Source of the DNA: Candidatus Poriferisocius sp.
GTDB lineage: Bacteria; Actinomycetota; Acidimicrobiia; Acidimicrobiales; Bin134
Direction of reading: 5' to 3'
DNA length: 64,000 bases
Assembly (NCBI RefSeq): GCF_965219815.1
Contig: NZ_OZ244791.1
Location: 3,500,491 to 3,564,490 of the forward strand
Shown here: in pieces, positions 14,560 to 49,597 of the stretch
How positions within the stretch are numbered: position 1 is the stretch's first letter
How the letters are laid out: each line of letters begins with the position of its first letter
Notes under the pieces: model-generated
Database searches by the model: none
Seen by the model: only the letters and a program-made list of their open reading frames with translations
What the model was told of the DNA's origin: nothing
Translations under genes and position numbers: made by a program

Positions 14560-17154
14560 ATGACTCTCCTGCGATACAGCCTCCGGAGCATCGCCGGCGT
14601 CAAGGTCCGGTTCGCGCTCACCACCCTTGCCGTAGTCATCGGGGTGGCCCTCACCACCGGGGTGCTGATCTCCACAGACGGCCTCCGCGCCTCCCTCAAC
14701 GACCTGTCGGGGCAGATTTACGAGAAGTACGACTTCACCGTTCGCGCCGCCTCCGACGTCGGCGACCGGAACGAGGGCGTGCCGCTGGTTCCTGTGTCGC
14801 TGAGCGAAGAGCTCATGTCGATGGACGGAGTAGAAGCCGTGGCGGGTTTGGCGCAGGAATTCAACGTCGTGGCCATCGACGGCGAAGGCAACGCCTTGGA
14901 CCCCGGCGTAGGCCGACAAATCGGATACGGCTGGCCCGAAGTTGAGTCGCTCAGCACGATCTATGTCTACGACGACGGCATCAGCCGCCAGCCCGTCGGG
15001 CCCGATGAATTCGCCATCGACCACTACACCGGCCGGGAGAACAACTTCGTCATCGGTCAGCGCTACAAGGTGGCCACCCCTGGGGGCACCGGCGAATACG
15101 AGCTGGTGGGGTACTTGTACTTTCTCGACCCTGAGACCCGGGTAGCGCTTCAGACCGTTTCGTGGGACATGCCCACCGCATTGGAACTCTTGCACGATGG
15201 CGGCGGCTACGACCACATCCACGGGAAGCTGTCACCGGGAGCGAGCTACGAAGAGGTGGCCGCGGCCATCAGTGCCCTCGTGGGCCCCGATATCGAGGTG
15301 GTCTCCCAGCAGGACAACATCGATGAGAGCAACGCGGAATTCGCCGGAAACATCGACCGTATCCAAAACCTCCTGTTGGCTTTCGCGGTGATCGTCTTGA
15401 TCATCTCGGCGTTTATCACTTACAACACATTCACCCTGGTCATGGGGCAACGCATCAGGGAGTTGGGCCTGCTGAGGGTACTGGGCGCCGAGCGGCGCCA
15501 AGTCGCCCAAGTCGTGGCGGTCGAAGCCTTGATCGTCGGGATCGTGGCCACCATCGCGGGATTCGGACTCGGCATATTGGTGGCTCTTGGTATTGCCGGA
15601 GCACTGAACAGCGCCGGCGCCCACCTTCCCGCTATCGACATCATCATCGGAGGGTGGACCGTTGCAGCCGCGGTGATCATCGGCATCGGTGTGACCATGG
15701 TGACCGCCATCTGGCCGGCCATGCGGGCCCGCCGGGTGACGCCCATGGTGGCGCTGGCCGACGAGGCCGAGATCGATCCCTTCAACAAGCGGCGCGCCTT
15801 GGTCATCGGATCGGCAGCCGGCGGGGTGGGGCTGATCCTGATGCTGATTGGTCTGCTGGCCGGTCTTCCTACCTCCCAGCTTTTGCTACCGCTCGGGTTG
15901 GGGGCGTTGTTGATGCTTCTGGGGGTCAACATCGCCACGCCGGGGATCGCCCGGTCGATGTCGCTGTTCTTGGGATGGCCGGCCGACCGGCTGTTCACCA
16001 TCAACGGGCGGTTGGCTCGGCTCAACGCGGCCCGCAACCCACGCCGCACCGCCACCACCGCTTCAGCGCTCATGATCGGCTTGGCCATGGTGTCGCTGGT
16101 CACCGTGCTCGGCACATCCCTCAAACAAACCTTGACTAGCCAACTAGAGGGTTCGGTGGAGGCCGACTGGCTCGTTTGCGTGAACGAGTGCAACACCGAT
16201 TTGAGCACGTTCAGCACCGCTGTGGGCGCGTTCAGCCAAGAGGCCACTCTGCAAATGTCGGAGATGCCCGAGGTGGAATCGGTGATGGCCTTCCGATTCC
16301 GCCCCGACGGAGCGCTCGCCCCCGATGGCGAACAGCGCCGCCTGACCGGCACTGACCTCGACTCGTTCTCACTCCATGTCGACCCGGGCGTGGTCTCCGG
16401 GAACTTGGAAGGCGCAGGCTCCGGCGATGTGCTCGTTCACAAGGATCTAGCCGACGATCTCGACATCGCCGTCGGAGACCAGCTGCTCCTCGAGTTCCCC
16501 GGCGAGCAGACGTCGACGTTTGATGTCGTCGCCCTTCACACCGAGGATTCCGTGGTCGGTCCGTTGGTGGTTGACTTCAGCGACTGGGACCAATTTATGG
16601 GCGGCACCCAGGACAATCTGGCCACGGTCATCATCGCTTCGGGGATTGACACGGACCAGGCCCGGTCCAGCCTGGAATCAGAGCTCGCCGACTATCCCCA
16701 GGTTGTGGTCAAGGACCAGGCCGAATACCGGGAGGGCAGGGCCACTGAGATCAACACGTTCCTGGTGATCATCAACGTGTTCTTGATCCTCGCTTTGCTC
16801 ATTGCGGTGGTGGGCATCTCCAACACCATGGCCCTTTCGATCTTCGAGCGAACCCGCGAGCTGGGGCTGGTGAGGGCCATCGGCATGGCCAAGAGGCAAA
16901 CCTGGGGGACGATCTTCTTGGAGAGCATCATCGTCGCCGTCTTCGGGGGAATCGTGGGCATTGCGACCGGCGTGGTGGCCGGCGCCATCGCCGCGGCCGC
17001 CCTTCCCGACAGCGTGATCTCCACCGTCAGCGTGCCGTGGCTCACGCTGGTGATCTACCTGGTGGTGTCGGCGGTGGCCGGAATGCTGGCCGCCTTCTTC
17101 CCGGCCCGCCGAGCCAACCGCCTCAACGTGCTGGAAGCCATCGCTCACCAGTAA
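14560..17154 (+). CDS. ABC transporter permease, internally duplicated FtsX/MacB type (864 aa)
   Basis: Two FtsX modules are present, each with the RTRELGLLR-type motif (IRELGLLRVLGA and RTRELGLVRAIGM), plus large extracytoplasmic domains. Confidence 0.9.
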   Translation: MTLLRYSLRSIAGVKVRFALTTLAVVIGVALTTGVLISTDGLRASLNDLSGQIYEKYDFTVRAASDVGDRNEGVPLVPVSLSEELMSMDGVEAVAGLAQEFNVVAIDGEGNALDPGVGRQIGYGWPEVESLSTIYVYDDGISRQPVGPDEFAIDHYTGRENNFVIGQRYKVATPGGTGEYELVGYLYFLDPETRVALQTVSWDMPTALELLHDGGGYDHIHGKLSPGASYEEVAAAISALVGPDIEVVSQQDNIDESNAEFAGNIDRIQNLLLAFAVIVLIISAFITYNTFTLVMGQRIRELGLLRVLGAERRQVAQVVAVEALIVGIVATIAGFGLGILVALGIAGALNSAGAHLPAIDIIIGGWTVAAAVIIGIGVTMVTAIWPAMRARRVTPMVALADEAEIDPFNKRRALVIGSAAGGVGLILMLIGLLAGLPTSQLLLPLGLGALLMLLGVNIATPGIARSMSLFLGWPADRLFTINGRLARLNAARNPRRTATTASALMIGLAMVSLVTVLGTSLKQTLTSQLEGSVEADWLVCVNECNTDLSTFSTAVGAFSQEATLQMSEMPEVESVMAFRFRPDGALAPDGEQRRLTGTDLDSFSLHVDPGVVSGNLEGAGSGDVLVHKDLADDLDIAVGDQLLLEFPGEQTSTFDVVALHTEDSVVGPLVVDFSDWDQFMGGTQDNLATVIIASGIDTDQARSSLESELADYPQVVVKDQAEYREGRATEINTFLVIINVFLILALLIAVVGISNTMALSIFERTRELGLVRAIGMAKRQTWGTIFLESIIVAVFGGIVGIATGVVAGAIAAAALPDSVISTVSVPWLTLVIYLVVSAVAGMLAAFFPARRANRLNVLEAIAHQ

Positions 17155-41797: not shown

Positions 41798-41988
41798 CCC
41801 CTTAAGCGACAGCGCCCGCTCCCGGGCCGTCTCAAGGGCTTGGTGGGCCCGATCGATATATGTCTGTTCCGCGGCGTGATCCGGATGAATCGGAGACTCC
41901 TCAGACTGAGTTCAAAACCAGTGAACGTTCAAGTCTAATACGAAATTGACGGGTTAGGGCGTGGCAGGCTCGCCGATCTCCGTGAGAC

Positions 41989-44900
41989 TCAGGATGGTTC
42001 AAAGATGAGCTCGGGCACCACGACCTCCCATGTGTCGCTCTTGAGCTGCTCTTGGTATTGCGGCTCTGAGTGCTGACGGCCCCAGGAAGCAATAGCCAGA
42101 ACCGTGGCACCGGTGCAGGTCATACCCTCTGGTGGTTTGAATGACTTGGCCAGCGTCCCCACCACCACCCCGGCATCATCGAGCAGTTCCCACCTTTCTG
42201 ACTTCAGCTGCACCTGTAGCGGGTCATTTGGCAAGAGCGCAGCAAGAGCGCGATGCACCCGATGGTCGGGTGGCATTCGACCCGCGAAGCTCAGGTAGAC
42301 GTTCTTCAAATTCAACTGTCGATAGTGGCGGGCCAACTCTATTGGCGGTGGTGGAACCGCGATGGGCTCTCGCCACTTCACCGCTGTGCTACTCCGCAGC
42401 GCCTCCTGCATCGCATTTGGTTTGCCGAGGTACCCGAGGGCAAGGGTTTGGCGGGCCCGGGTCATGGCCACGTAGTACAGGCGGCGCTCGGCGTCAGGGT
42501 CTTGATCTTGTCCGCCGCGGTCCCAGCCACCGTCAAGCACCACAACGTGATCGAACTCAAGTCCCTTTGCCCTATGGGCGGTGCAAAGCAGTATTCCTCG
42601 CTGGCGCCGGCGCACCTCGCGCCCCCATTCGGCCAGCCATTCTCTGAATGTGTCCACTGGAACCTGGCCTGAACCGAACTCCATCTGGTGCTCGTCAACG
42701 GCATCCTTCAAGAGTTCAGTCCAAGGGGTGGGCTCTTGTTTGCTCACCCAGTTGCACAAGTCGGAATTGACGATCCACTGAGAATCGCGCTCGCGGAGCC
42801 AATCCAAGAGGGCCTGGGTCTCGCGAAGATGCCAAACGCTGGGGAGTTCTTCGTTCGCCATCTGAACCGGTATGCCGTCAAGCTCGCAGATGCTGCGAAT
42901 TGGTTGCAGATAGTTCCACTCCCTAGCAATCACGGCACAGGTTGACCAATCCCAGTCTGACGAGAGGCTTGCCATTCGCTGGAGCTCGGCCATAACCGCC
43001 TGCCCCTGCGCCTGTGAGCCCGCGTCGCGTCTGGCGGTCAGGATTTGAACCCTCCCACCACCTATGGGATCGCGCTCGGCCCAAATGCCGCCCGGTGGGT
43101 ATTTGGCGCGCTGTTTGTCGATTCGGATCTCGTTGTCCCGCTTCATGCGATCTTGTGCTGGCTCGATAACCGCATTGGCGGCCTTGATGATGTGTTGGGT
43201 AGATCGGTAGTTGTCGGTGAGGAAGGCGGGTTTGGCTTCGTAGTCCTGTTCAAAGTTGCGAATGAACTGCACCGACGAACCCTTGAAGGCATAGATGTTC
43301 TGGTCGTCGTCGCCCACCGCGAACAAGGTCAGCTTGGCATCGGCGTCTGCTTGAGTCCGGCCAGCTAGGGCCGAGATGAGGTCGTACTCGTCGCGGCCGA
43401 CATCTTGGTATTCGTCCACCAGAATCCAGCGGAACCCCGCCAGCAGCCGGGCCCGCGACTCCTCTGCCTCCTCCTCTGTTGCCAGCCCTTCGCCATGCAG
43501 CAGGGCAGTGGCCTGCCTGAGGATGTCTTGGAACTGCTCACTTTCGGGGCGGTCGGCCCGCTCGGCGAAGCTGGTGCCAACAAGCCTCATGGCCAGGGCG
43601 TGGCAGGTAAGCACCAGCACCCTTCGCGAGTCGTCTCCAACCAACTCAGCAAGTCGGCGACGTATCTCAACTGCGGCATGCCGGTTGTAGGCCAAGGCAA
43701 GGATGCCCCGAGGGTCTTCGCGCCTCACTCGAACTAGATAAGCGATTCGATGTACCAGCACCCGGGTTTTTCCTGAGCCGGGCCCGGCCAGCACCAGCAC
43801 GTTCGTGGTCTCGCGGTCGTCGGCCACTAGGCGTCGCTGAGAGGGATTCTTCAGGCTCTCGACGATGTTGTGCCACGACTCTGGAGAGGTTTGGCGGGAC
43901 AACTCTCGTTCACGATCAGGGAGCCAGCGGCGAATGAACTCTTCGTCGCCGAGAGCGAAGTAATCGAGAGATAGACGCAAGGCGTCAGCCATGTCCTGGA
44001 GGCCCCGCTGCGCGAATTCGGCCATGACATGTATCTGGCGCACTGTTTGGTCGTAGTGAATCTGTAGAGACTGAAAGTCGGCGTTGGCGAAGCCACGTTG
44101 TTTGTGCCTCGCTTCCAGGCGGATGGTCATCGCCGGGCGGAACACGGTGAGGCCCTTATTGAGCCTTATGACCTCCAATTCATGCAGCCACATGAGGGAG
44201 CGGTCCACAAGCTTGCGAACGTCGTTCACCTGCCCCCTCAGGGTTAGATCGCTGTCTACCGATCTAACCAGCTCCCCCAGCGTGGTTTCAGCCAGCAAAT
44301 CGGTCCCGCGACGCTTGCCCGGCGGCAACCTCGACAGGAGGTGCTCAAGCAGACGCTTCGCACCAGAACGCCGGCGCTGGGCAATGTCGGCAAGGGAGCG
44401 CCACTCTCGCTTTAACGTCACCCAAACGCTCTCGGCGTCGAGCTTGTTCACGCTGATGCTGCCGCCGACACCCCTCTCGCCCCGTCCGTCGCCGGCGATT
44501 CCGCGCAGGATGCGAGTCACGTACTCAGGACGAACATTGTCGTGGCCGTCGTCTTTGATCCTCTGGGTGGCCACCCGAAGGTTCAGCGGCGCGCTGTCAC
44601 CCACTCCCATATCGGGGGCCATCTCTTGCATGAGGCTTATGAGCTTCTCCTCCACTGCGGCCGCCTCGGCGAATCGCTTCTTCGAACTCCGCGTGACGCC
44701 GGCGTGGACGAAAGCGGTCAACCCGGTTTCATTGCTGGCGATTCCAAAGTTCTCCAGGTCATGGAGCGCGCCTCGCAACCGTTTGGGTTCGAAACCGATT
44801 GTGCTCATCAGCACGTCGGTGGAAATGCCCTCGTCGGGGTCGGCTTCGATCAGCGCCTTCACGATGGCGAGGAGTTGGGCGCGGTAGCCATCGCTGATCG

Positions 44901-47202
44901 GCTTGGCGTCGAGCTTCTTCCGGGCCTCCTCGACCGTGCTCACCTGTAGCGAAGACGGGAAGACTCTGACTCGGTTTTCCTCCCGAGTGAGCAACTCTGA
45001 CTCCTCCAACCAGGCGAGGGCGGTCCGTCCTCGGGTGTCGTCGGTAGCAGAATCCCGCCGGAATTCCTTGTCTTCGTCTTCGATGAGGATCTCTCCCATG
45101 GTGGCGACCACTTCGTCGCTCTTGTTGCGACGACCCAGCCGGCGCAGGGCTCGAAGGACCCCGTGAATGTCGCGCCGGGTTAGCCGGGAGCGAGCAGACA
45201 TGCCGAACTGCCGCTCCACATCGTCTTTGGTGTAGAGCAGCACACAATGGGCTTCTTGCTGGTCTCTCCCCGCACGCCCTGCCTCTTGCAAGTAGTTCTC
45301 CAACGACGACGGTATGTCAGCGTGGATCACCAACCGGACATCGGGCTTGTCGATACCCATTCCGAAGGCGTTGGTGGCGGCGATCACCCGCAGATCACCC
45401 CTGATGAACTCGTCTTGGACGGTCTTCTTCTCCTCGGGCTGCAACCCCGCGTGGAAGCGGTCGGCTGAGACCTCGTGCTCTCGCAGGTAATTCGCCAGTT
45501 CTTCGGTCCGCCGCCGCGTGGCGCAATACACGATCGCGCCGCCTTGGCGGTCTGGGGGCAAGTGCTTGGCCAAGATCATGTGAATGTCGTTGGACTTCTG
45601 GGATCTGGTGGTCTCCACCACCACAAAATCAAGGTTCGTTCGGCGACTGCCACCGTCGAAGTCGTGCAACATGATGCCGAGCTTGTCCCTGAAGTAATCC
45701 AGGATCTCTTCTTTGACCCCCGGTTTGGCCGTGGCAGTCAGGCACATAACTGGGGGAATCAACCCGCCTTCGGCCCGTTCATCGATGAAGCGCCCCACAT
45801 AGCGATAATCGGGGCGGAAGTCATGGCCCCACTTGGAGAGGCAGTGAGCCTCGTCGAGAACCCAGGCACCTATTTCGCGTTGTTCCAAGGCCCGTCGAAA
45901 CGAGACGCTGCGCAACTGCTCGGGAGAGATCAATACGATGGATGCGTCTCCCAGCCTGAGCTTTTCCAGTGCATCGGCTCGCTCTGGCATTGACAACAGG
46001 CCGTTTATCGTGATGCAGGAGTCGATGCTATGGGCTTCTAGTCCGGCAACCTGGTCGACCATCAGAGCCACCAACGGTGAGATGACCACGGTTACTGCCC
46101 CGGTCTTCTCGTATCGTGAAAGGGCCGGTATCTGGTAGCACAACGACTTGCCCGTACCCGTGGGCAGGATTCCCAGAACATGGCGACCCTCCATTGCTGA
46201 CTCGACAATGGACTGCTGTAATGAATGTCCTTGCCGTTCCGGGTCTTCCGGTTCTGGTCTGAAGGCGTCGAAGCCAAAGAAACGCTTCAGTTCCTCAGAG
46301 GCATTGTGGCGCTCTCGGCACCAGGGACATCCCCGGTCGGGGCATCTGCGATCACGGAGTCGTCGAACCAGTTGCCCGGCCTTGGGAAACTGGTGCCTAA
46401 CCCAAGATGGCATGACCGAGTTGCCCCCTGCTACCGACAGCCACGCCAAGGCATAGGCGAGCGGCCAACTGTGCTGATCGGCTGATGCGATGGCTTCGTT
46501 GGCATACGTGCGGCAGGCGATGTGTTCGAGGCGGGCCTGGATCGCCTCCCGGCCCTCCGCATCGGATGGCCGGGGTGATCTACGTAAGCACTCGAAGAAA
46601 AAGTCGAAGCCGGTTTCGGGCTGCCCCCCCGTGAGCCAGTGCCAGGCGGCCAGTAGGTCGGATGGTGCCTCCAGCAGCTTTTTTTGCTGGTTAGAGAAGA
46701 CCTGCAAAGCCAGTTCGGCGTCTTGTTTCGGGTCGTTCTTGCGCTCAGAGTTGAGCTGCCCGTCTTGATAATGCTTGACCAGATGGTGGTATGGGTTGCG
46801 AGGAAAGGCGAGTGGATTGAGCCACAGCGTGTCTATTGCCGGCAGTCGCAGCAGGCGCAGATCGGGCTTTTTGGCTTGCAGTCGGGGCAAGTCGAAGTCG
46901 ATGAGATTGTGATTGAGCAAGAAATCTGCACCTTTGGCGAGATCGTCTAGCTCAGCCAGCGCCTGTTCAAACCGGCGGCCCCCTGAGGGGAATACAACGG
47001 ACTTCCCGGTATCACGGCGTACTCCGGCAAAGGCGTGGATGTGCTCGGTTTCCTTCGATACCTCAAGGTCGATGGCAAGGCAGCGAGACAGTCTCATGAG
47101 AAGACGCTGGGCTTCGATCTTGCTGCTCAGACCATCAGCAACGTCAGATCCAACACGACTGGAGGTGTTTTCGACGGCTTGAGCAACTCCCTCTTCGGTC
47201 AC
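41989..47202 (-). CDS. 1737-aa multidomain protein: DnaQ-like 3'-5' exonuclease, RecQ-family helicase core and UvrD-like helicase
   Basis: Exonuclease motifs AIDLEV and NHNLIDFDLPRL. RecQ core: LPTGTGKSLCYQIPA, VLDEAHCLSKWGHDFRPDY, TNAFGMGIDKPDVRLVIH, QEAGRAGRD. UvrD part: VLAGPGSGKTRVLVHRIAYL, ILVDEYQDV, DNYRST, HRAKGLEFD, YVAMTRARQ. The start is GTG at 47202. Confidence 0.9.
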   Translation of the reverse strand: MTEEGVAQAVENTSSRVGSDVADGLSSKIEAQRLLMRLSRCLAIDLEVSKETEHIHAFAGVRRDTGKSVVFPSGGRRFEQALAELDDLAKGADFLLNHNLIDFDLPRLQAKKPDLRLLRLPAIDTLWLNPLAFPRNPYHHLVKHYQDGQLNSERKNDPKQDAELALQVFSNQQKKLLEAPSDLLAAWHWLTGGQPETGFDFFFECLRRSPRPSDAEGREAIQARLEHIACRTYANEAIASADQHSWPLAYALAWLSVAGGNSVMPSWVRHQFPKAGQLVRRLRDRRCPDRGCPWCRERHNASEELKRFFGFDAFRPEPEDPERQGHSLQQSIVESAMEGRHVLGILPTGTGKSLCYQIPALSRYEKTGAVTVVISPLVALMVDQVAGLEAHSIDSCITINGLLSMPERADALEKLRLGDASIVLISPEQLRSVSFRRALEQREIGAWVLDEAHCLSKWGHDFRPDYRYVGRFIDERAEGGLIPPVMCLTATAKPGVKEEILDYFRDKLGIMLHDFDGGSRRTNLDFVVVETTRSQKSNDIHMILAKHLPPDRQGGAIVYCATRRRTEELANYLREHEVSADRFHAGLQPEEKKTVQDEFIRGDLRVIAATNAFGMGIDKPDVRLVIHADIPSSLENYLQEAGRAGRDQQEAHCVLLYTKDDVERQFGMSARSRLTRRDIHGVLRALRRLGRRNKSDEVVATMGEILIEDEDKEFRRDSATDDTRGRTALAWLEESELLTREENRVRVFPSSLQVSTVEEARKKLDAKPISDGYRAQLLAIVKALIEADPDEGISTDVLMSTIGFEPKRLRGALHDLENFGIASNETGLTAFVHAGVTRSSKKRFAEAAAVEEKLISLMQEMAPDMGVGDSAPLNLRVATQRIKDDGHDNVRPEYVTRILRGIAGDGRGERGVGGSISVNKLDAESVWVTLKREWRSLADIAQRRRSGAKRLLEHLLSRLPPGKRRGTDLLAETTLGELVRSVDSDLTLRGQVNDVRKLVDRSLMWLHELEVIRLNKGLTVFRPAMTIRLEARHKQRGFANADFQSLQIHYDQTVRQIHVMAEFAQRGLQDMADALRLSLDYFALGDEEFIRRWLPDRERELSRQTSPESWHNIVESLKNPSQRRLVADDRETTNVLVLAGPGSGKTRVLVHRIAYLVRVRREDPRGILALAYNRHAAVEIRRRLAELVGDDSRRVLVLTCHALAMRLVGTSFAERADRPESEQFQDILRQATALLHGEGLATEEEAEESRARLLAGFRWILVDEYQDVGRDEYDLISALAGRTQADADAKLTLFAVGDDDQNIYAFKGSSVQFIRNFEQDYEAKPAFLTDNYRSTQHIIKAANAVIEPAQDRMKRDNEIRIDKQRAKYPPGGIWAERDPIGGGRVQILTARRDAGSQAQGQAVMAELQRMASLSSDWDWSTCAVIAREWNYLQPIRSICELDGIPVQMANEELPSVWHLRETQALLDWLRERDSQWIVNSDLCNWVSKQEPTPWTELLKDAVDEHQMEFGSGQVPVDTFREWLAEWGREVRRRQRGILLCTAHRAKGLEFDHVVVLDGGWDRGGQDQDPDAERRLYYVAMTRARQTLALGYLGKPNAMQEALRSSTAVKWREPIAVPPPPIELARHYRQLNLKNVYLSFAGRMPPDHRVHRALAALLPNDPLQVQLKSERWELLDDAGVVVGTLAKSFKPPEGMTCTGATVLAIASWGRQHSEPQYQEQLKSDTWEVVVPELIFEPS

Positions 47203-47275
47203 AGTGCGGCGGCCTGCCTAATCGTGTCCGGCAGACAATTCTTGTGGCACGGTGGGGATGCTAGACGTTGACAGT

Positions 47276-47297
47276 TATGTGTCGGCTATGTGTCGGC
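47276..47297. repeat. tandem 11-bp repeat TATGTGTCGGC x2 in the divergent intergenic region
   Basis: Read directly. Neighbouring short inverted repeats are CTCGAC/GTCGAG (47313/47327) and TTTCTC/GAGAAA (47362/47377). Confidence 0.8.
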
Positions 47298-47424
47298 TTT
47301 GCCCTGCCAACACTCGACTGAAAATTGTCGAGATTCATATGTTTTGACTGCAAATTGGATGTTTCTCATTGTTCACGAGAAATGTCATGTAGATACTGTC
47401 ACTGGTGTCGGTAGACTGGTGGGC

Positions 47425-48591
47425 ATGGAATCTGGGACGTTGACCAGGCGAAACGCCAGCACTGGCGTGCATGTTGATGCGGTGGAGATCGCCGGGTTGG
47501 ACGATGCTTCCCTGGATTTGCGGTTGCGTCAGATCGGGCGGGCTCGGAATCAGTTGGATGGGTTCTTGGCGGAGGCGGTGGCGGAAAAGAAGCGACGCAC
47601 CAGCCCGTATGACACGGCCAACACATTGAAATCTGAGCTCCGCCAGTCGGGCCAGCAGGCCCAACGCACCATGCGCGACGCTGAACAGTTGGAATCGCTG
47701 GCGGCCACTCGGGGAGCGCTCTCTGACAGCCGCATCACCTCCGAGCACGCCCGCATCCTGGGAACTGCGGCACAAGCAGGGCCCCTGGACGAGGACAAGA
47801 TGCTGGCCGCGGCCGAGCACCAGACCCCCGAGCAATTGCGGCGCACGGTACGCGAGCACCAAGACGAGATGTCTGGCGATACAGACGGTGCCAAGCGGCT
47901 CGAGCGCCAACGGAGAAAACGCACCGCCAGCTTCACCGAGCAGGACGACGGCATGTGGCGACTGTTCGCTCTGTTCGACCCGGTCGCTGCGCAAGGCATC
48001 CGGGCTGCGCTCAACCACAAGACCGACATGGCCTGGCACGCCACCACCGGCCGTGAGCGGCTCGAAGCCCGCCATCGCCGGGCCGATGCAATCTCTGGGC
48101 TGCTGACCCGTACTTCAGACGGAGAGACCGAGCAGCCCCAGCCGACCAGCCTGTTGATCCTGGCCGACTACGACGCCATCGACCGTCAACTTGGCAATCC
48201 TCGGTTGGCCGATGGCACCCCGTTGCCTCAAGATGAGTTCCGCAAGCTGGCCTGCGACGCCGAAATCCTCACCGGGATCTTCGATGCCGACCTGCAATGC
48301 CTCTCACTGGGCCGCCAACGCCACCCCAGTCCCCAACTTCGAGCCGCCATTACTGCTCGGGACCAAGGCTGCATCGGCTGTCGAGCCGAGCCCGAGTGGT
48401 GCGTCTCCCACCACATCATCCACTGGCAAGACGACGGCCCCACCCAATCCGACAACCTCGTGCAGCTCTGCCACGACTGCCACCACAAAGTCCACCACCG
48501 CAACTGGGATGTCGAACATCACCCCGACACCGGCCGCCCCCACCTACGACCCCCCTGGCAACAACCCCCCGAACCACCGCCCAGACGCTGA
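47425..48591 (+). CDS. DUF222-type HNH endonuclease (actinobacterial 13E12-repeat-like family)
   Basis: The N-terminal DUF222-like helical region (LDGFLAEAV...) is followed by a C-terminal HNH (CIGCRAEPEWCVSHHIIHWQDDGPTQSDNLVQLCHDCHHKVHH). ATG 47425 is chosen as the start. Confidence 0.85.
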   Translation: MESGTLTRRNASTGVHVDAVEIAGLDDASLDLRLRQIGRARNQLDGFLAEAVAEKKRRTSPYDTANTLKSELRQSGQQAQRTMRDAEQLESLAATRGALSDSRITSEHARILGTAAQAGPLDEDKMLAAAEHQTPEQLRRTVREHQDEMSGDTDGAKRLERQRRKRTASFTEQDDGMWRLFALFDPVAAQGIRAALNHKTDMAWHATTGRERLEARHRRADAISGLLTRTSDGETEQPQPTSLLILADYDAIDRQLGNPRLADGTPLPQDEFRKLACDAEILTGIFDADLQCLSLGRQRHPSPQLRAAITARDQGCIGCRAEPEWCVSHHIIHWQDDGPTQSDNLVQLCHDCHHKVHHRNWDVEHHPDTGRPHLRPPWQQPPEPPPRR

Positions 48592-48654
48592 CAGATCGCC
48601 GCCTGAGGAGCGCTTTCTGGCACGTCAAGAAGCCAGGACAATCCATAGCGGTTG

Positions 48655-48690
48655 CCATATATATACGGTTATAATACCGTACTTATATGG
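48655..48690. promoter_or_regulatory. imperfect 15-bp inverted repeat flanking a TATAAT box; candidate promoter/operator of the toxin-antitoxin pair
   Basis: CCATATATATACGGT (48655-48669), TATAAT (48670-48675), ACCGTACTTATATGG (48676-48690). Thirteen of 15 positions are complementary. The right arm contains the antitoxin ATG (48687), implying a leader of only a few nt. Confidence 0.45.
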
Positions 48691-48932
48691 CTTCTAAGAC
48701 AACCATCAACTTCGATGACGAGATGGAAGCAGCACTCGCCGAACTGGTGGCATTGGACGGCACCAAGAAGCTGGCCATCAAGCGGTCTCTTCTCGCCGAG
48801 GTGAAGCGCCGCCGCAGCAGTCGCGCAATGCTCGACATGATCGCTTCGTGGGAGGCAGATGAAGGCCCCATCAGCTCCGAGCATCTCGAGTGGGCCGACG
48901 GCGTACTCGACCGACAGGGGGTGGATCGTTGA
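48687..48932 (+). CDS. type II antitoxin (VapB-like)
   Basis: 81 aa. The N-terminus KTTINFDDEMEAALAEL resembles VapB-type antitoxins. Its stop overlaps the toxin start. Confidence 0.7.
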   Translation: MASKTTINFDDEMEAALAELVALDGTKKLAIKRSLLAEVKRRRSSRAMLDMIASWEADEGPISSEHLEWADGVLDRQGVDR

Positions 48933-49282
48933 TCGTTGACGCTGGTCCGCTGATCCTCGATAGCGAAAAACTTAACTCCCGACTGTGGGCTCTAATCAAG
49001 CGGGCCGCTGAGCGCGGTGACGATCTACACACGACCCATCCGGTGCTCGCTCAGGTTTGGCGAGAGCCCGCGAAACAAGCGAACTTGGCCCGCGCGCTGC
49101 GCTACTTCTCTATCCACCCTTTCGACGAGTCGGTGGGCGTGGGACTCAGGCTTGCCGACTCCGGTACCTCAGATGTGGTTGACGCCCACCTCGCCGTGGT
49201 CGCAGAGGGCTTGGGCACATTCATCCTCACCACAGACCACGATGACATGTCAAGACTCAACGCCCGCTTCGAGCGCTACTGA
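48929..49282 (+). CDS. PIN-domain toxin (VapC-like)
   Basis: The TTG at 48929 overlaps the antitoxin stop as TTGA. Acidic PIN residues are present in IVDAGPL, VVDAHL and LTTDHDD. Confidence 0.72.
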   Translation: MIVDAGPLILDSEKLNSRLWALIKRAAERGDDLHTTHPVLAQVWREPAKQANLARALRYFSIHPFDESVGVGLRLADSGTSDVVDAHLAVVAEGLGTFILTTDHDDMSRLNARFERY

Positions 49283-49315
49283 CGGACGGAGTTGACAAAC
49301 CCTCACCAGTGGTGC

Positions 49316-49597
49316 TCAAAGAGTTCCACCCTCGCCGATCTCTTTGAGGGCGTCGCCGATGGCGGCTTGGAGGCGGCGGGCCAGGGGTGGGGACAGGTGG
49401 GCCACTAGGCCATAGCCGGCTTGGCCTACCTCTTCCACGGTGAGCACCACCCGGGGAGTGGCGTCTTCGTAGTCGTCGGCGATGGCCACCGCCCACGACA
49501 CCGGGGAGAACTCGTCGTCGTCGCCGGGCGGGAGGTCGGCCGGGTCGAAGGGGTAATCGTCAATAGACCGGCGCACCGCATGGATGGTACCGGCCAA
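49316..49597 (-). CDS. hypothetical acidic protein (93 aa)
   Basis: ORF with GC-rich third positions, divergent from hemE. I recognise no motif. Confidence 0.45.
   Translation of the reverse strand: MAGTIHAVRRSIDDYPFDPADLPPGDDDEFSPVSWAVAIADDYEDATPRVVLTVEEVGQAGYGLVAHLSPPLARRLQAAIGDALKEIGEGGTL

Follow-up and report, generated by a model that had tools for sequence, protein, structure and literature searches.

What is an exonuclease-like domain doing in the same polypeptide as two helicase motors of different superfamilies, and what could such a protein be for? The question is raised by a giant gene of Candidatus Poriferisocius sp., a 5.2-kb open reading frame (ORF) on the minus strand of a 64,000-nucleotide stretch of contig NZ_OZ244791.1, the whole of which is called the window here. 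A first-pass annotation of the window had described the product as a fusion of a DnaQ-like exonuclease, a RecQ core and a UvrD-type motor, encoded in an accessory island. We show that the protein of 1737 amino acids (aa) belongs to a real and strongly conserved family of enzymes that unite two complete motors, from different superfamilies, in a single chain. The gene and the parts of its product are located as follows.

41989..47202, minus strand: giant gene, encoding a 1737-aa exonuclease-like/RecQ/winged-helix array/UvrD/C-terminal-domain fusion (evidence from the ORF, hidden Markov models (HMMs) and homologs).
46663..47091, minus strand, aa ~38-180: DnaQ-like (DEDD) exonuclease-like domain, nearest to the N-terminal exonuclease of Firmicute DinG.
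46303..46662, minus strand, aa ~181-300: helical four-cysteine module with C230, C287, C292 and C295 (C-x56-C-x4-C-x2-C).
45208..46296, minus strand, aa ~303-665: RecQ-family core of helicase superfamily 2 (SF2), with motifs I, II (DEAH), III (TAT) and VI (QEAGRAGRD).
43873..45207, minus strand, aa 666-1110: family-specific linker, a probable array of winged-helix domains according to the AlphaFold2 (AF2) model and weak winged helix-turn-helix matches.
42403..43866, minus strand, aa ~1113-1600: UvrD/PcrA/Rep-type motor of superfamily 1A (SF1A), with AGPGSGKT (Walker A), DEYQD, GDDDQ, YRST, TAHRAKGLEF and YVAMTRAR.
41992..42345, minus strand, aa ~1620-1737: beta-rich C-terminal domain (predicted local distance difference test, pLDDT, 85-91).

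The ORF runs for 1737 codons from a GTG start, without a single internal stop, to the stop codon at 41989-41991. All the motifs on which the fusion had been proposed are present in the translation: AIDLEV at aa 43-48, NHNLIDFDLPRL at aa 97-108, NDPKQDAELA at aa 156-165, GTGKS at aa 349-353, VLDEAHCLSKWGHDFRPDY at aa 448-466, QEAGRAGRD at aa 639-647, AGPGSGKT at aa 1139-1146, VDEYQD at aa 1262-1267, YRST at aa 1332-1335 and YVAMTRAR at aa 1577-1584. An alternative ATG start at Met36 (~47097), which would yield ~1702 aa, coincides with the start of the homolog P0002 and may be the true start of the gene. The G+C content of the gene ranges from 0.56 to 0.62, against 0.65-0.71 in the flanks, in agreement with the lower value noted at first sight. 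Inspection of the upstream region for a promoter, terminator or SOS box revealed nothing notable.

The length and domain set of the protein are shared by its homologs. Among 77 homologous loci from GTDB genomes, many of them on complete long-read chromosomes, 69 have an intact ORF of 1698-1842 aa, and more than 120 protein clusters at 65-93% identity have the same length and the same domains. Comparison with the homologs shows uniform conservation over the full length. The ratio of nonsynonymous to synonymous substitution rates (dN/dS) is 0.08-0.36 in each of the five domains, including the linker, which indicates purifying selection. In 45 full-length representatives, mutually no more than 50% identical, the helicase motifs of both motors are all conserved. 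The intact homologous ORFs contradict a resolution of the locus into two or three separate genes, an outcome that the first-pass annotation had allowed for. We also considered split-gene variants and rejected them: those of the shorter database entries inspected that begin at the linker have as their first residue a Met within RecQ motifs V/VI, and are truncated fragments. About 40% of the length of the giant protein lies outside Pfam coverage: the first 316 aa, the linker (445 aa) and the final ~150 aa have zero matches even at E<=10.

Each of the two motors is recognized by Pfam or NCBIfam models above their cut-offs. The RecQ part is matched by Pfam DEAD and Helicase_C over aa 328-647 and scores 307.2 bits with the NCBIfam model recQ_fam (TIGR00614; cut-off 219.8), which places it in the RecQ family. 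Motifs I, II (DEAH), III and VI are invariant in the 45 diverse members, and a Foldseek search with the AF2 model recovers the cores of RecQ, BLM, WRN, RECQ1 and RECQL5 at E values of 1e-17 to 1e-21. The matches to RecQ models end at position 336 of 591 (TIGR01389) and 338 of 470 (TIGR00614), and the RecQ equivalog score of 338 falls below the cut-off of 640. No Pfam match to RecQ_Zn_bind, RQC or HRDC was found in the giant protein, so that the canonical RecQ C-terminal domains are missing; the four-cysteine module, which precedes the RecQ core, is unrelated to the canonical RecQ Zn-binding subdomain.

The UvrD part is matched within aa 1119-1591 by Pfam UvrD-helicase, AAA_19, UvrD_C and UvrD_C_2, all above cut-offs (PF00580, 134.8 bits; PF13361, 59 bits; PF13245, 81.9 bits), which makes it a member of SF1A. 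Its best Foldseek matches are Rep, UvrD, PcrA and UvrD1, with AdnB also recovered. The equivalog models of named housekeeping SF1A enzymes score far below their cut-offs (PcrA, 173 versus 911; UvrD, 160 versus 1144). Orthology with the named UvrD, PcrA, Rep, HelD and AddA is not supported, all the equivalog scores being far under cut-off. Foldseek searches with both whole AF2 models, in which the motors dominate, returned RecQ and UvrD matches only. Movement along DNA in the 3'->5' direction is established for RecQ helicases and for SF1A helicases alike.

The N-terminal domain had been called DnaQ-like from two short motifs, with the third exonuclease motif in doubt. Both the call and the doubt turn out to be well founded. 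In a single-sequence search the sole match is the exonuclease domain of Firmicute DinG (8zef_A, E=0.016), and a profile built from 18 diverse members and compared with solved structures finds the same DinG 3'-5' exonuclease domain at E=1.3e-7, followed by weak matches to the exonuclease domains of PolC, T7 polymerase, Pol II and Cas2-DEDDh. Against Pfam, the window protein gives no match in this region and the 18 members give only sub-threshold ones, to RNase_T (E=0.031), RNase_H_2 and DNA_pol_B_exo1. The AlphaFold model of the N-terminus (pLDDT ~80-90 over aa 30-260) has the order strand-strand-strand-helix-strand-helix, which fits the DnaQ fold; D45 and E47 fall on its first strand, and D161 opens a long helix. 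D45, E47, D104 and D161, the four acids expected of a DEDD domain, are invariant in homologs from 93% down to 29% identity, and the Exo II motif 'GHN...D' is conserved over the same range. A fifth catalytic residue, a His (DEDDh) or Tyr (DEDDy) 4-5 residues before the last Asp, was not found: the position of the DinG Exo III His is occupied by Asn156, which is Asn in all close homologs and in most distant ones, and occasionally Pro, Ser, Gly or Gln. Because the four acids are invariant and an Asn stands where the Exo III His should be, the domain has the metal-binding acid tetrad but is without the canonical general base. Tyr138-His139, located upstream and nearly invariant among homologs, might substitute for the missing base. 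DinG-type DEDD domains are 3'-5' exonucleases. In the adjoining helical module, C230, C287, C292 and C295 are all invariant in the family and may form a putative Zn or Fe-S site.

The linker between the motors had been described as lacking any recognizable motif. This is true of Pfam, which gives no match, but the linker is not featureless: it looks like a series of tandem winged helices. In the AF2 model it consists of repeated helix-helix-helix-strand-strand units, and searches with the linker profile and with individual members give weak matches only, many of which are winged-helix families (DtxR/IdeR, AsnC, Rrf2-like, Crp-type HTH, RPA_C, MarR and eIF2D-WH). An array of tandem winged-helix domains is thus the probable structure. 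The linker is specific to the family: phmmer with the linker alone against 1.84 billion representative proteins yielded 902 proteins, 235 of them at E<=1e-30, and the full-length proteins (~1700-1900 aa) among the 150 matches listed carry it at residues ~590-690 to 1040-1150, down to 29% identity.

The C-terminal domain (~115 aa) ends in a conserved W-E-V-V-x-P-E motif. Its profile has no sequence relatives in Pfam or the PDB, and it is, as first described, of no recognized type. Judging by its position in the protein, a relationship to the C-terminal Tudor domain of PcrA/UvrD is possible. One distant member, P0264 (1886 aa), carries an extra C-terminal Peptidase_S24 domain of the LexA/UmuD type in its last 139 residues (PF00717, E=5e-7, above cut-off), and is the only one of the 45 full-length representatives with an added recognizable domain. 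By its sequence, this fusion hints at a coupling with RecA/single-stranded DNA (ssDNA) signalling.

Is the giant gene a resident of its locus or an addition to it? We searched metagenome contigs for an empty site using the neighbouring HelD/HelR-family protein as a probe. In the closest contigs without the giant gene (L089-L091; HelD 87% and hemE 91% identical), hemE, a small ORF and helD are adjacent, and the giant gene, the HNH gene and the PIN cassette next to it are all missing. DNA alignment to these contigs places the ends of the insertion in the window.

41987..49330, 7344 bp: insertion relative to the empty hemE/helD site, holding the giant gene, the HNH gene and a small toxin-antitoxin (TA)-like cassette.
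41969..41986, plus strand: left copy of an 18-bp imperfect direct repeat, CTCGCCGATCTCCGTGAG, ending 2 nt short of the giant gene's stop codon.
49331..49348, plus strand: right copy of the 18-bp direct repeat, CTCGCCGATCTCTTTGAG, the sequence found as a single copy in the empty site.

The two copies of the repeat agree at 16 of 18 positions. No integrase or transposase was found inside the 7344-bp insertion, and the giant gene occurs in none of the 80 helD loci examined. Since related genomes have an empty hemE/helD site, the giant gene is accessory and lies inside a 7.3-kb insertion bounded by an 18-bp direct repeat. The island proposed at first reading is thereby borne out, and the possibility that this is a conserved core gene at this position, raised at the same time, is rejected by the empty sites, even though three very close relatives share the island. 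The insertion also clips the 3' end of a small conserved ORF at 49316-49597 on the minus strand.

These three relatives (L169, L170 and L171), whose flanking proteins are 96-99% identical to those of the window, hold the island at the same site with an HNH gene 92-94% identical. In L169 the giant protein is 92.7% identical to that of the window. In L170, by contrast, DNA identity is 96-98% in the flanks, the HNH gene is 94% identical and the giant protein only 77%. Alignment of L170 and L171 to positions 41800-47500 of the window shows a giant gene that is 67-83% identical in DNA along nearly its full length, with the shift occurring at the ORF ends; a short patch at 43301-43900 within the gene is 88-91% identical. 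Because the flanks are 96-98% identical and the giant gene only 67-83%, with the change at the ORF ends, the L170 pattern is an allele replacement by recombination with a foreign homolog, confined to the giant gene.

The island holds two further elements, and its neighbours in the window are a HelD/HelR-family gene and hemE (URO-D).

47425..48591, plus strand: HNH endonuclease-domain protein, divergent from the giant gene, 388 aa from the likely start Met at 47425 (the longest ORF begins at 47290).
48687..49282, plus strand: possible VapBC-like cassette made up of two small ORFs, of 81 aa and 130 aa, that overlap.

The HNH protein matches PF01844 at 23-24 bits, and its start at Met 47425 (388 aa) is the one called in L169 and L170. 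Its N-terminal ~300 aa have no family match, and the HNH region is weakly similar to that of IscB. The HNH gene is kept beside the giant gene in the three closely related genomes only and not in other lineages. The HelD/HelR-family gene, hemE and the HNH gene named in the first-pass annotation are as described; the VapBC pair is less certain, as the second ORF of the cassette has a weak PIN match below cut-off (E=0.014) and the small upstream ORF has none. The cassette is absent from L169 and replaced by non-homologous sequence in L170, and is therefore a separate, recent addition to the island.

How widely is the family distributed? In a pattern scan of one genome per GTDB species, with the pattern taken from a narrower linker alignment, we confirmed at least 588 loci among the species-representative genomes, and the architecture is conserved down to ~30% identity. 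The best 80 of these at least 588 loci, with linker identities of 59-72%, span more than 10 phylum- or class-level groups: Acidimicrobiia, Dehalococcoidia/SAR202, Caldilineaceae, Spirochaetia, Vicinamibacterales and other Acidobacteriota, Binatia, Latescibacterota, Poribacteria, Nitrospirota, Nitrospinota, and Alpha-, Beta- and Gammaproteobacteria. Among named homologs the closest, P0002, comes from Candidatus Poriferisocius. Many of these 80 carriers (L002-L081) have names of the sponge or coral type (Poribacteria, Ca. Poriferisocius, Ca. Poriferisodalis; SB06xx, IRC4, RHO, APA and Plut bins). The record titles and bin names suggest a gene pool structured by habitat, namely the microbiomes of sponges and corals.

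The phylogenetic position of the carriers does not always predict that of the protein. The nearest relative belongs to the same phylum-level group for 53 of 68 proteins and to another group for the remaining 15. Cross-phylum protein identities reach 91% between Spirochaetia and Acidobacteriota, 87.5% between Binatia and Acidobacteriota, 85-86% between Alphaproteobacteria and Acidobacteriota, and 95% between Latescibacterota and Chromatiales. Binning error is an unlikely cause, since several of these copies are on Mb-scale contigs or chromosomes. In the cross-phylum pairs with comparable flanks (L009, L013, L033 and L025 versus L042; L024 versus L052), DNA similarity of 85-92% extends from a few tens of nt inside the ORF to ~25 nt before the stop codon, and the flanks are unrelated. 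L009 and L042 (Spirochaetia/Acidobacteriota) are 92% identical in DNA. Their synonymous divergence (dS) is 0.10-0.17 in the central part of the gene but 0.3-0.6 at the ends, a pattern suggestive of a mosaic or recombinant origin. L030 and L077, the Latescibacterota/Chromatiales pair, share 92% of their DNA and 95% of their protein sequence; the contig of L077, 5.1 kb long, leaves hardly any flank to compare. The cross-phylum pattern is most simply read as resident copies having been replaced by homologous incoming alleles, as at the locus in the window.

Copies of the gene are also found on replicons other than the main chromosome. We found 25 full-length copies, 50-60% identical, on plasmids or chromids of the cultured bacteria Thiothrix fructosivorans, Cereibacter sphaeroides, C. 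azotoformans, Rhizobium ruizarguesonis, R. leguminosarum TA1, Paracoccus versutus, Sulfitobacter, Croceicoccus and Microvirga. Among these copies are D0Z66_20275 on C. sphaeroides p.A, U8Q05_37070 on R. ruizarguesonis pRlX5 and J1836_RS00275 on Thiothrix pTfr153. Plasmid copies that are annotated bear the database label "RecQ family ATP-dependent DNA helicase". The giant gene thus moves between phyla, swaps alleles at a fixed site and is also plasmid-borne. Two other occurrences were recorded. One Vicinamibacterales contig carries two giant genes 775 kb apart (L040 and L042) with 100% identical proteins, inside a duplicated segment of ~12 kb (96.8% identical) that is surrounded by 1.6-1.7-kb repeats of 99.7% identity in both orientations, resembling insertion sequences (IS). 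Four predicted viral or proviral contigs of IMG/VR (L085-L088) encode family members with 36-53% linker identity.

Does the giant gene travel or work with a partner? We compared the flanking ORFs of 80 loci all-against-all and found no conserved partner gene: the commonest neighbour families are a tyrosine integrase (13 loci), a sulfatase (9), a DUF4143 ATPase (7), Ogt (6) and a methyltransferase of restriction-modification type (5). Scans of the nearest neighbours, two genes on each side at 38 loci (150 ORFs), lead to the same rejection: at E<=1e-10 the PADLOC models pick out neither GajA nor Dpd nor PsyrA as a recurrent neighbour among these 150 ORFs. Some individual settings are suggestive. 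On annotated plasmids the surroundings of the giant gene include a type I-D CRISPR-Cas locus, accompanied by a WYL protein and a 3'-5' exonuclease, or Doc/MazE and YoeB/Phd, or HipAB. Its surroundings in a Caldilineaceae metagenome-assembled genome comprise a HEPN/MNT-like pair, NurA, a Dam-type methylase and an AAA_15 ATPase. Genes of TA, CRISPR or restriction-modification type occur close by on several annotated plasmids and in locus L001. In six loci (L001, at 15150-15674, and five others) an Ogt-type methylated-DNA-protein-cysteine methyltransferase is encoded convergently ~20 bp downstream of the giant gene; this adjacency could reflect synteny within a lineage or hint at a link with repair. 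As no neighbour family is common to more than 13 of the 80 loci, the giant gene is stand-alone, as had been proposed, and often sits in variable regions; the defence-island signal is weak and enrichment is not demonstrated.

What, then, is the protein for? Our best guess is single-gene surveillance or defence against incoming DNA. We hold it tentatively, at rather less than an even chance, and regard an accessory repair enzyme as a close rival. Defence is favoured because the gene lies in an island, its alleles turn over at a fixed site, it has recently been exchanged across phyla, plasmids carry it beside CRISPR and TA modules, and its domains resemble those of DpdF, PsyrT and GajB. The giant protein would work without a partner, using ATP to drive the surveillance of DNA or defence against it. 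Both motors would be placed by the winged-helix array and the C-terminal domain on branched, gapped or 3'-tailed DNA, for example the replication and recombination intermediates of incoming plasmids and phages. Both motors would unwind the target DNA and strip proteins off it, and the DEDD domain would bind and hold, or trim, the exposed 3' end. Foreign or aberrant DNA would as a result be unable to replicate or recombine. A more specific version seems to us rather unlikely: a self-contained single-gene immunity against mobile DNA, in which a dual motor with a DEDD 3'-end module recognizes invader intermediates via the winged-helix array and dismantles them, and in which unrelated bacteria, especially sponge symbionts, swap its alleles in an arms race.

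Several observations weigh against defence. The protein is ~65% identical across phyla and has no hypervariable segment, which is unusually conserved for an immune gene. It contains no recognized toxic effector domain, and its sole nuclease-like domain is without the canonical His or Tyr. No full-length copy was found among 50,697 phage records. The nearest neighbours belong mostly to ordinary metabolic families, and only about 7 of the 150 match PADLOC models (PDC-S01, methyltransferases, a type IV restriction enzyme, HEC-06 and AriA). Some neighbours point to repair, namely Ogt immediately downstream in six loci and NurA in L001, and the S24 domain of the distant member would fit repair at least as well as defence.

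The alternative that survives best is an accessory enzyme of DNA repair or replication stress, a bacterial functional analogue of WRN or Firmicute DinG, which we consider possible though somewhat short of the defence reading in likelihood. The motors would have as their substrates stalled forks, D-loops, R-loops or RecA filaments, which they would remodel, and the DEDD domain would act by trimming 3' ends; the gene would spread horizontally through its benefit to genome maintenance in habitats rich in mobile DNA or damage rather than through attack on invaders. RecQ, UvrD/PcrA and the DinG exonuclease homologs are all proteins of repair or replication conflict, and the high conservation, low dN/dS, mostly non-defence neighbours (with Ogt and NurA among them) and the LexA-like S24 fusion in one member agree with such a role. 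A repair enzyme is harder to reconcile with the absence of the giant gene from close relatives and its patchy distribution, with allele replacement confined to the ORF between flanks still 96-98% identical, with recent transfer across phyla, and with plasmid copies beside CRISPR and TA modules. Moreover, the canonical RecQ accessory domains used in repair are absent.

A function for mobile elements themselves is improbable. The helicase-nuclease would then serve the plasmids and islands on which it resides, in their establishment, replication or recombination or as an anti-defence factor; it might, for instance, process ssDNA as it enters or counteract nucleases of the host. The plasmid and chromid copies, the integrases near 13 of the 80 loci, the four matches in IMG/VR viral contigs, the IS-like repeats around the duplicated copy and the ORF being the unit of transfer or recombination all speak for it. 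Yet most copies reside in Mb-scale chromosomes amid metabolic genes with no adjoining element genes, HMM scans of the protein find no relaxase, replication initiator or transposase domain, and the phage records hold no full-length copy. Finally, there is a negligible chance of an artefact, in which two or three neighbouring genes, for exonuclease-RecQ and for UvrD, were merged by sequencing or assembly error, or else of a decaying pseudogene: beyond the unusual size and the stretches without Pfam coverage we found no positive support for it, and it is excluded because intact ORFs of the same length recur in independent loci, with uniform conservation and purifying selection along the entire protein.

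Which known systems does the giant protein resemble? WRN, cited in the first-pass annotation, likewise has a 3'-5' exonuclease-fold domain N-terminal to a RecQ core in one polypeptide. The comparison holds for domain order only, as an analogy. The WRN exonuclease is of the DEDDy/DNA_pol_A_exo1 type, whereas that of the giant protein is DinG/RNase T-like with Asn at the general-base position; WRN has RQC and HRDC and no second motor, whereas the giant protein has a second motor and neither of these domains. Pfam finds no match to PF01612, RQC or HRDC in the giant protein, so it is not of the WRN type. Firmicute DinG (S. aureus/B. subtilis; 8zef, 9ii8) is the only significant relative of the N-terminal domain in the structural database, the alignment spanning Exo II, Exo III and the subsequent helices, and in both proteins the exonuclease is N-terminal to the helicase. 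The DinG motor, however, is an XPD-like SF2 helicase in place of a RecQ core followed by a UvrD motor, and DinG keeps the Exo III His that is Asn in the giant-protein family.

RecBCD, AddAB and AdnAB combine two helicase motors and a nuclease into one machine, and the UvrD-type motor of the giant protein is homologous to those of RecB, AddA and AdnB. Those machines are multi-subunit, with SF1 motors (SF1A and SF1B in RecBCD) and PD-(D/E)xK nucleases, whereas the giant protein is one chain in which a DEDD-fold domain is combined with an SF2 RecQ motor and an SF1A UvrD motor, each with an expected 3'->5' direction. Among defence systems, the best PADLOC profiles are DpdF (377 bits) and PsyrT (290 bits) for the RecQ part and GajB (186 bits) for the UvrD part; these matches cover single domains, and the partner genes (the dpd cluster, PsyrA and GajA) are not conserved neighbours. 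Nhi and Hna are each one large protein with a motor and a nuclease on mobile islands, the same general logic as in the giant protein. Their motors and nuclease folds are different, and PADLOC shows no sequence relationship beyond the helicase superfamily.

No model in PADLOC v2 covers the whole giant protein, no solved structure matches it beyond single domains, and in the full-text literature we found no description of the exonuclease-RecQ-UvrD architecture, in agreement with the earlier impression that no member had been characterized. A published second RecQ in Desulfonema could not be tied to the family. The union of an SF2 RecQ motor with an SF1A UvrD motor in a single chain is an arrangement that we found in no studied enzyme, and it poses a new question for helicase research: how two motors of the same expected polarity cooperate with each other and with a DEDD domain that has no usual general base. 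The family extends over hundreds of species in at least 10 phyla and occurs on plasmids of culturable Cereibacter, Rhizobium, Paracoccus and Thiothrix, with genetically tractable hosts among its carriers; the family as a whole is masked by the generic label "RecQ family helicase". The empty site, the ORF-confined allele replacement and the near-identical cross-phylum copies make it a clear marker of a gene pool shared among sponge symbionts. In logic the giant protein resembles WRN, DinG and RecBCD/AddAB and is a member of none of them. If it serves defence, it adds a new single-gene system; if it serves repair, it is a bacterial counterpart of WRN and DinG with an extra motor.

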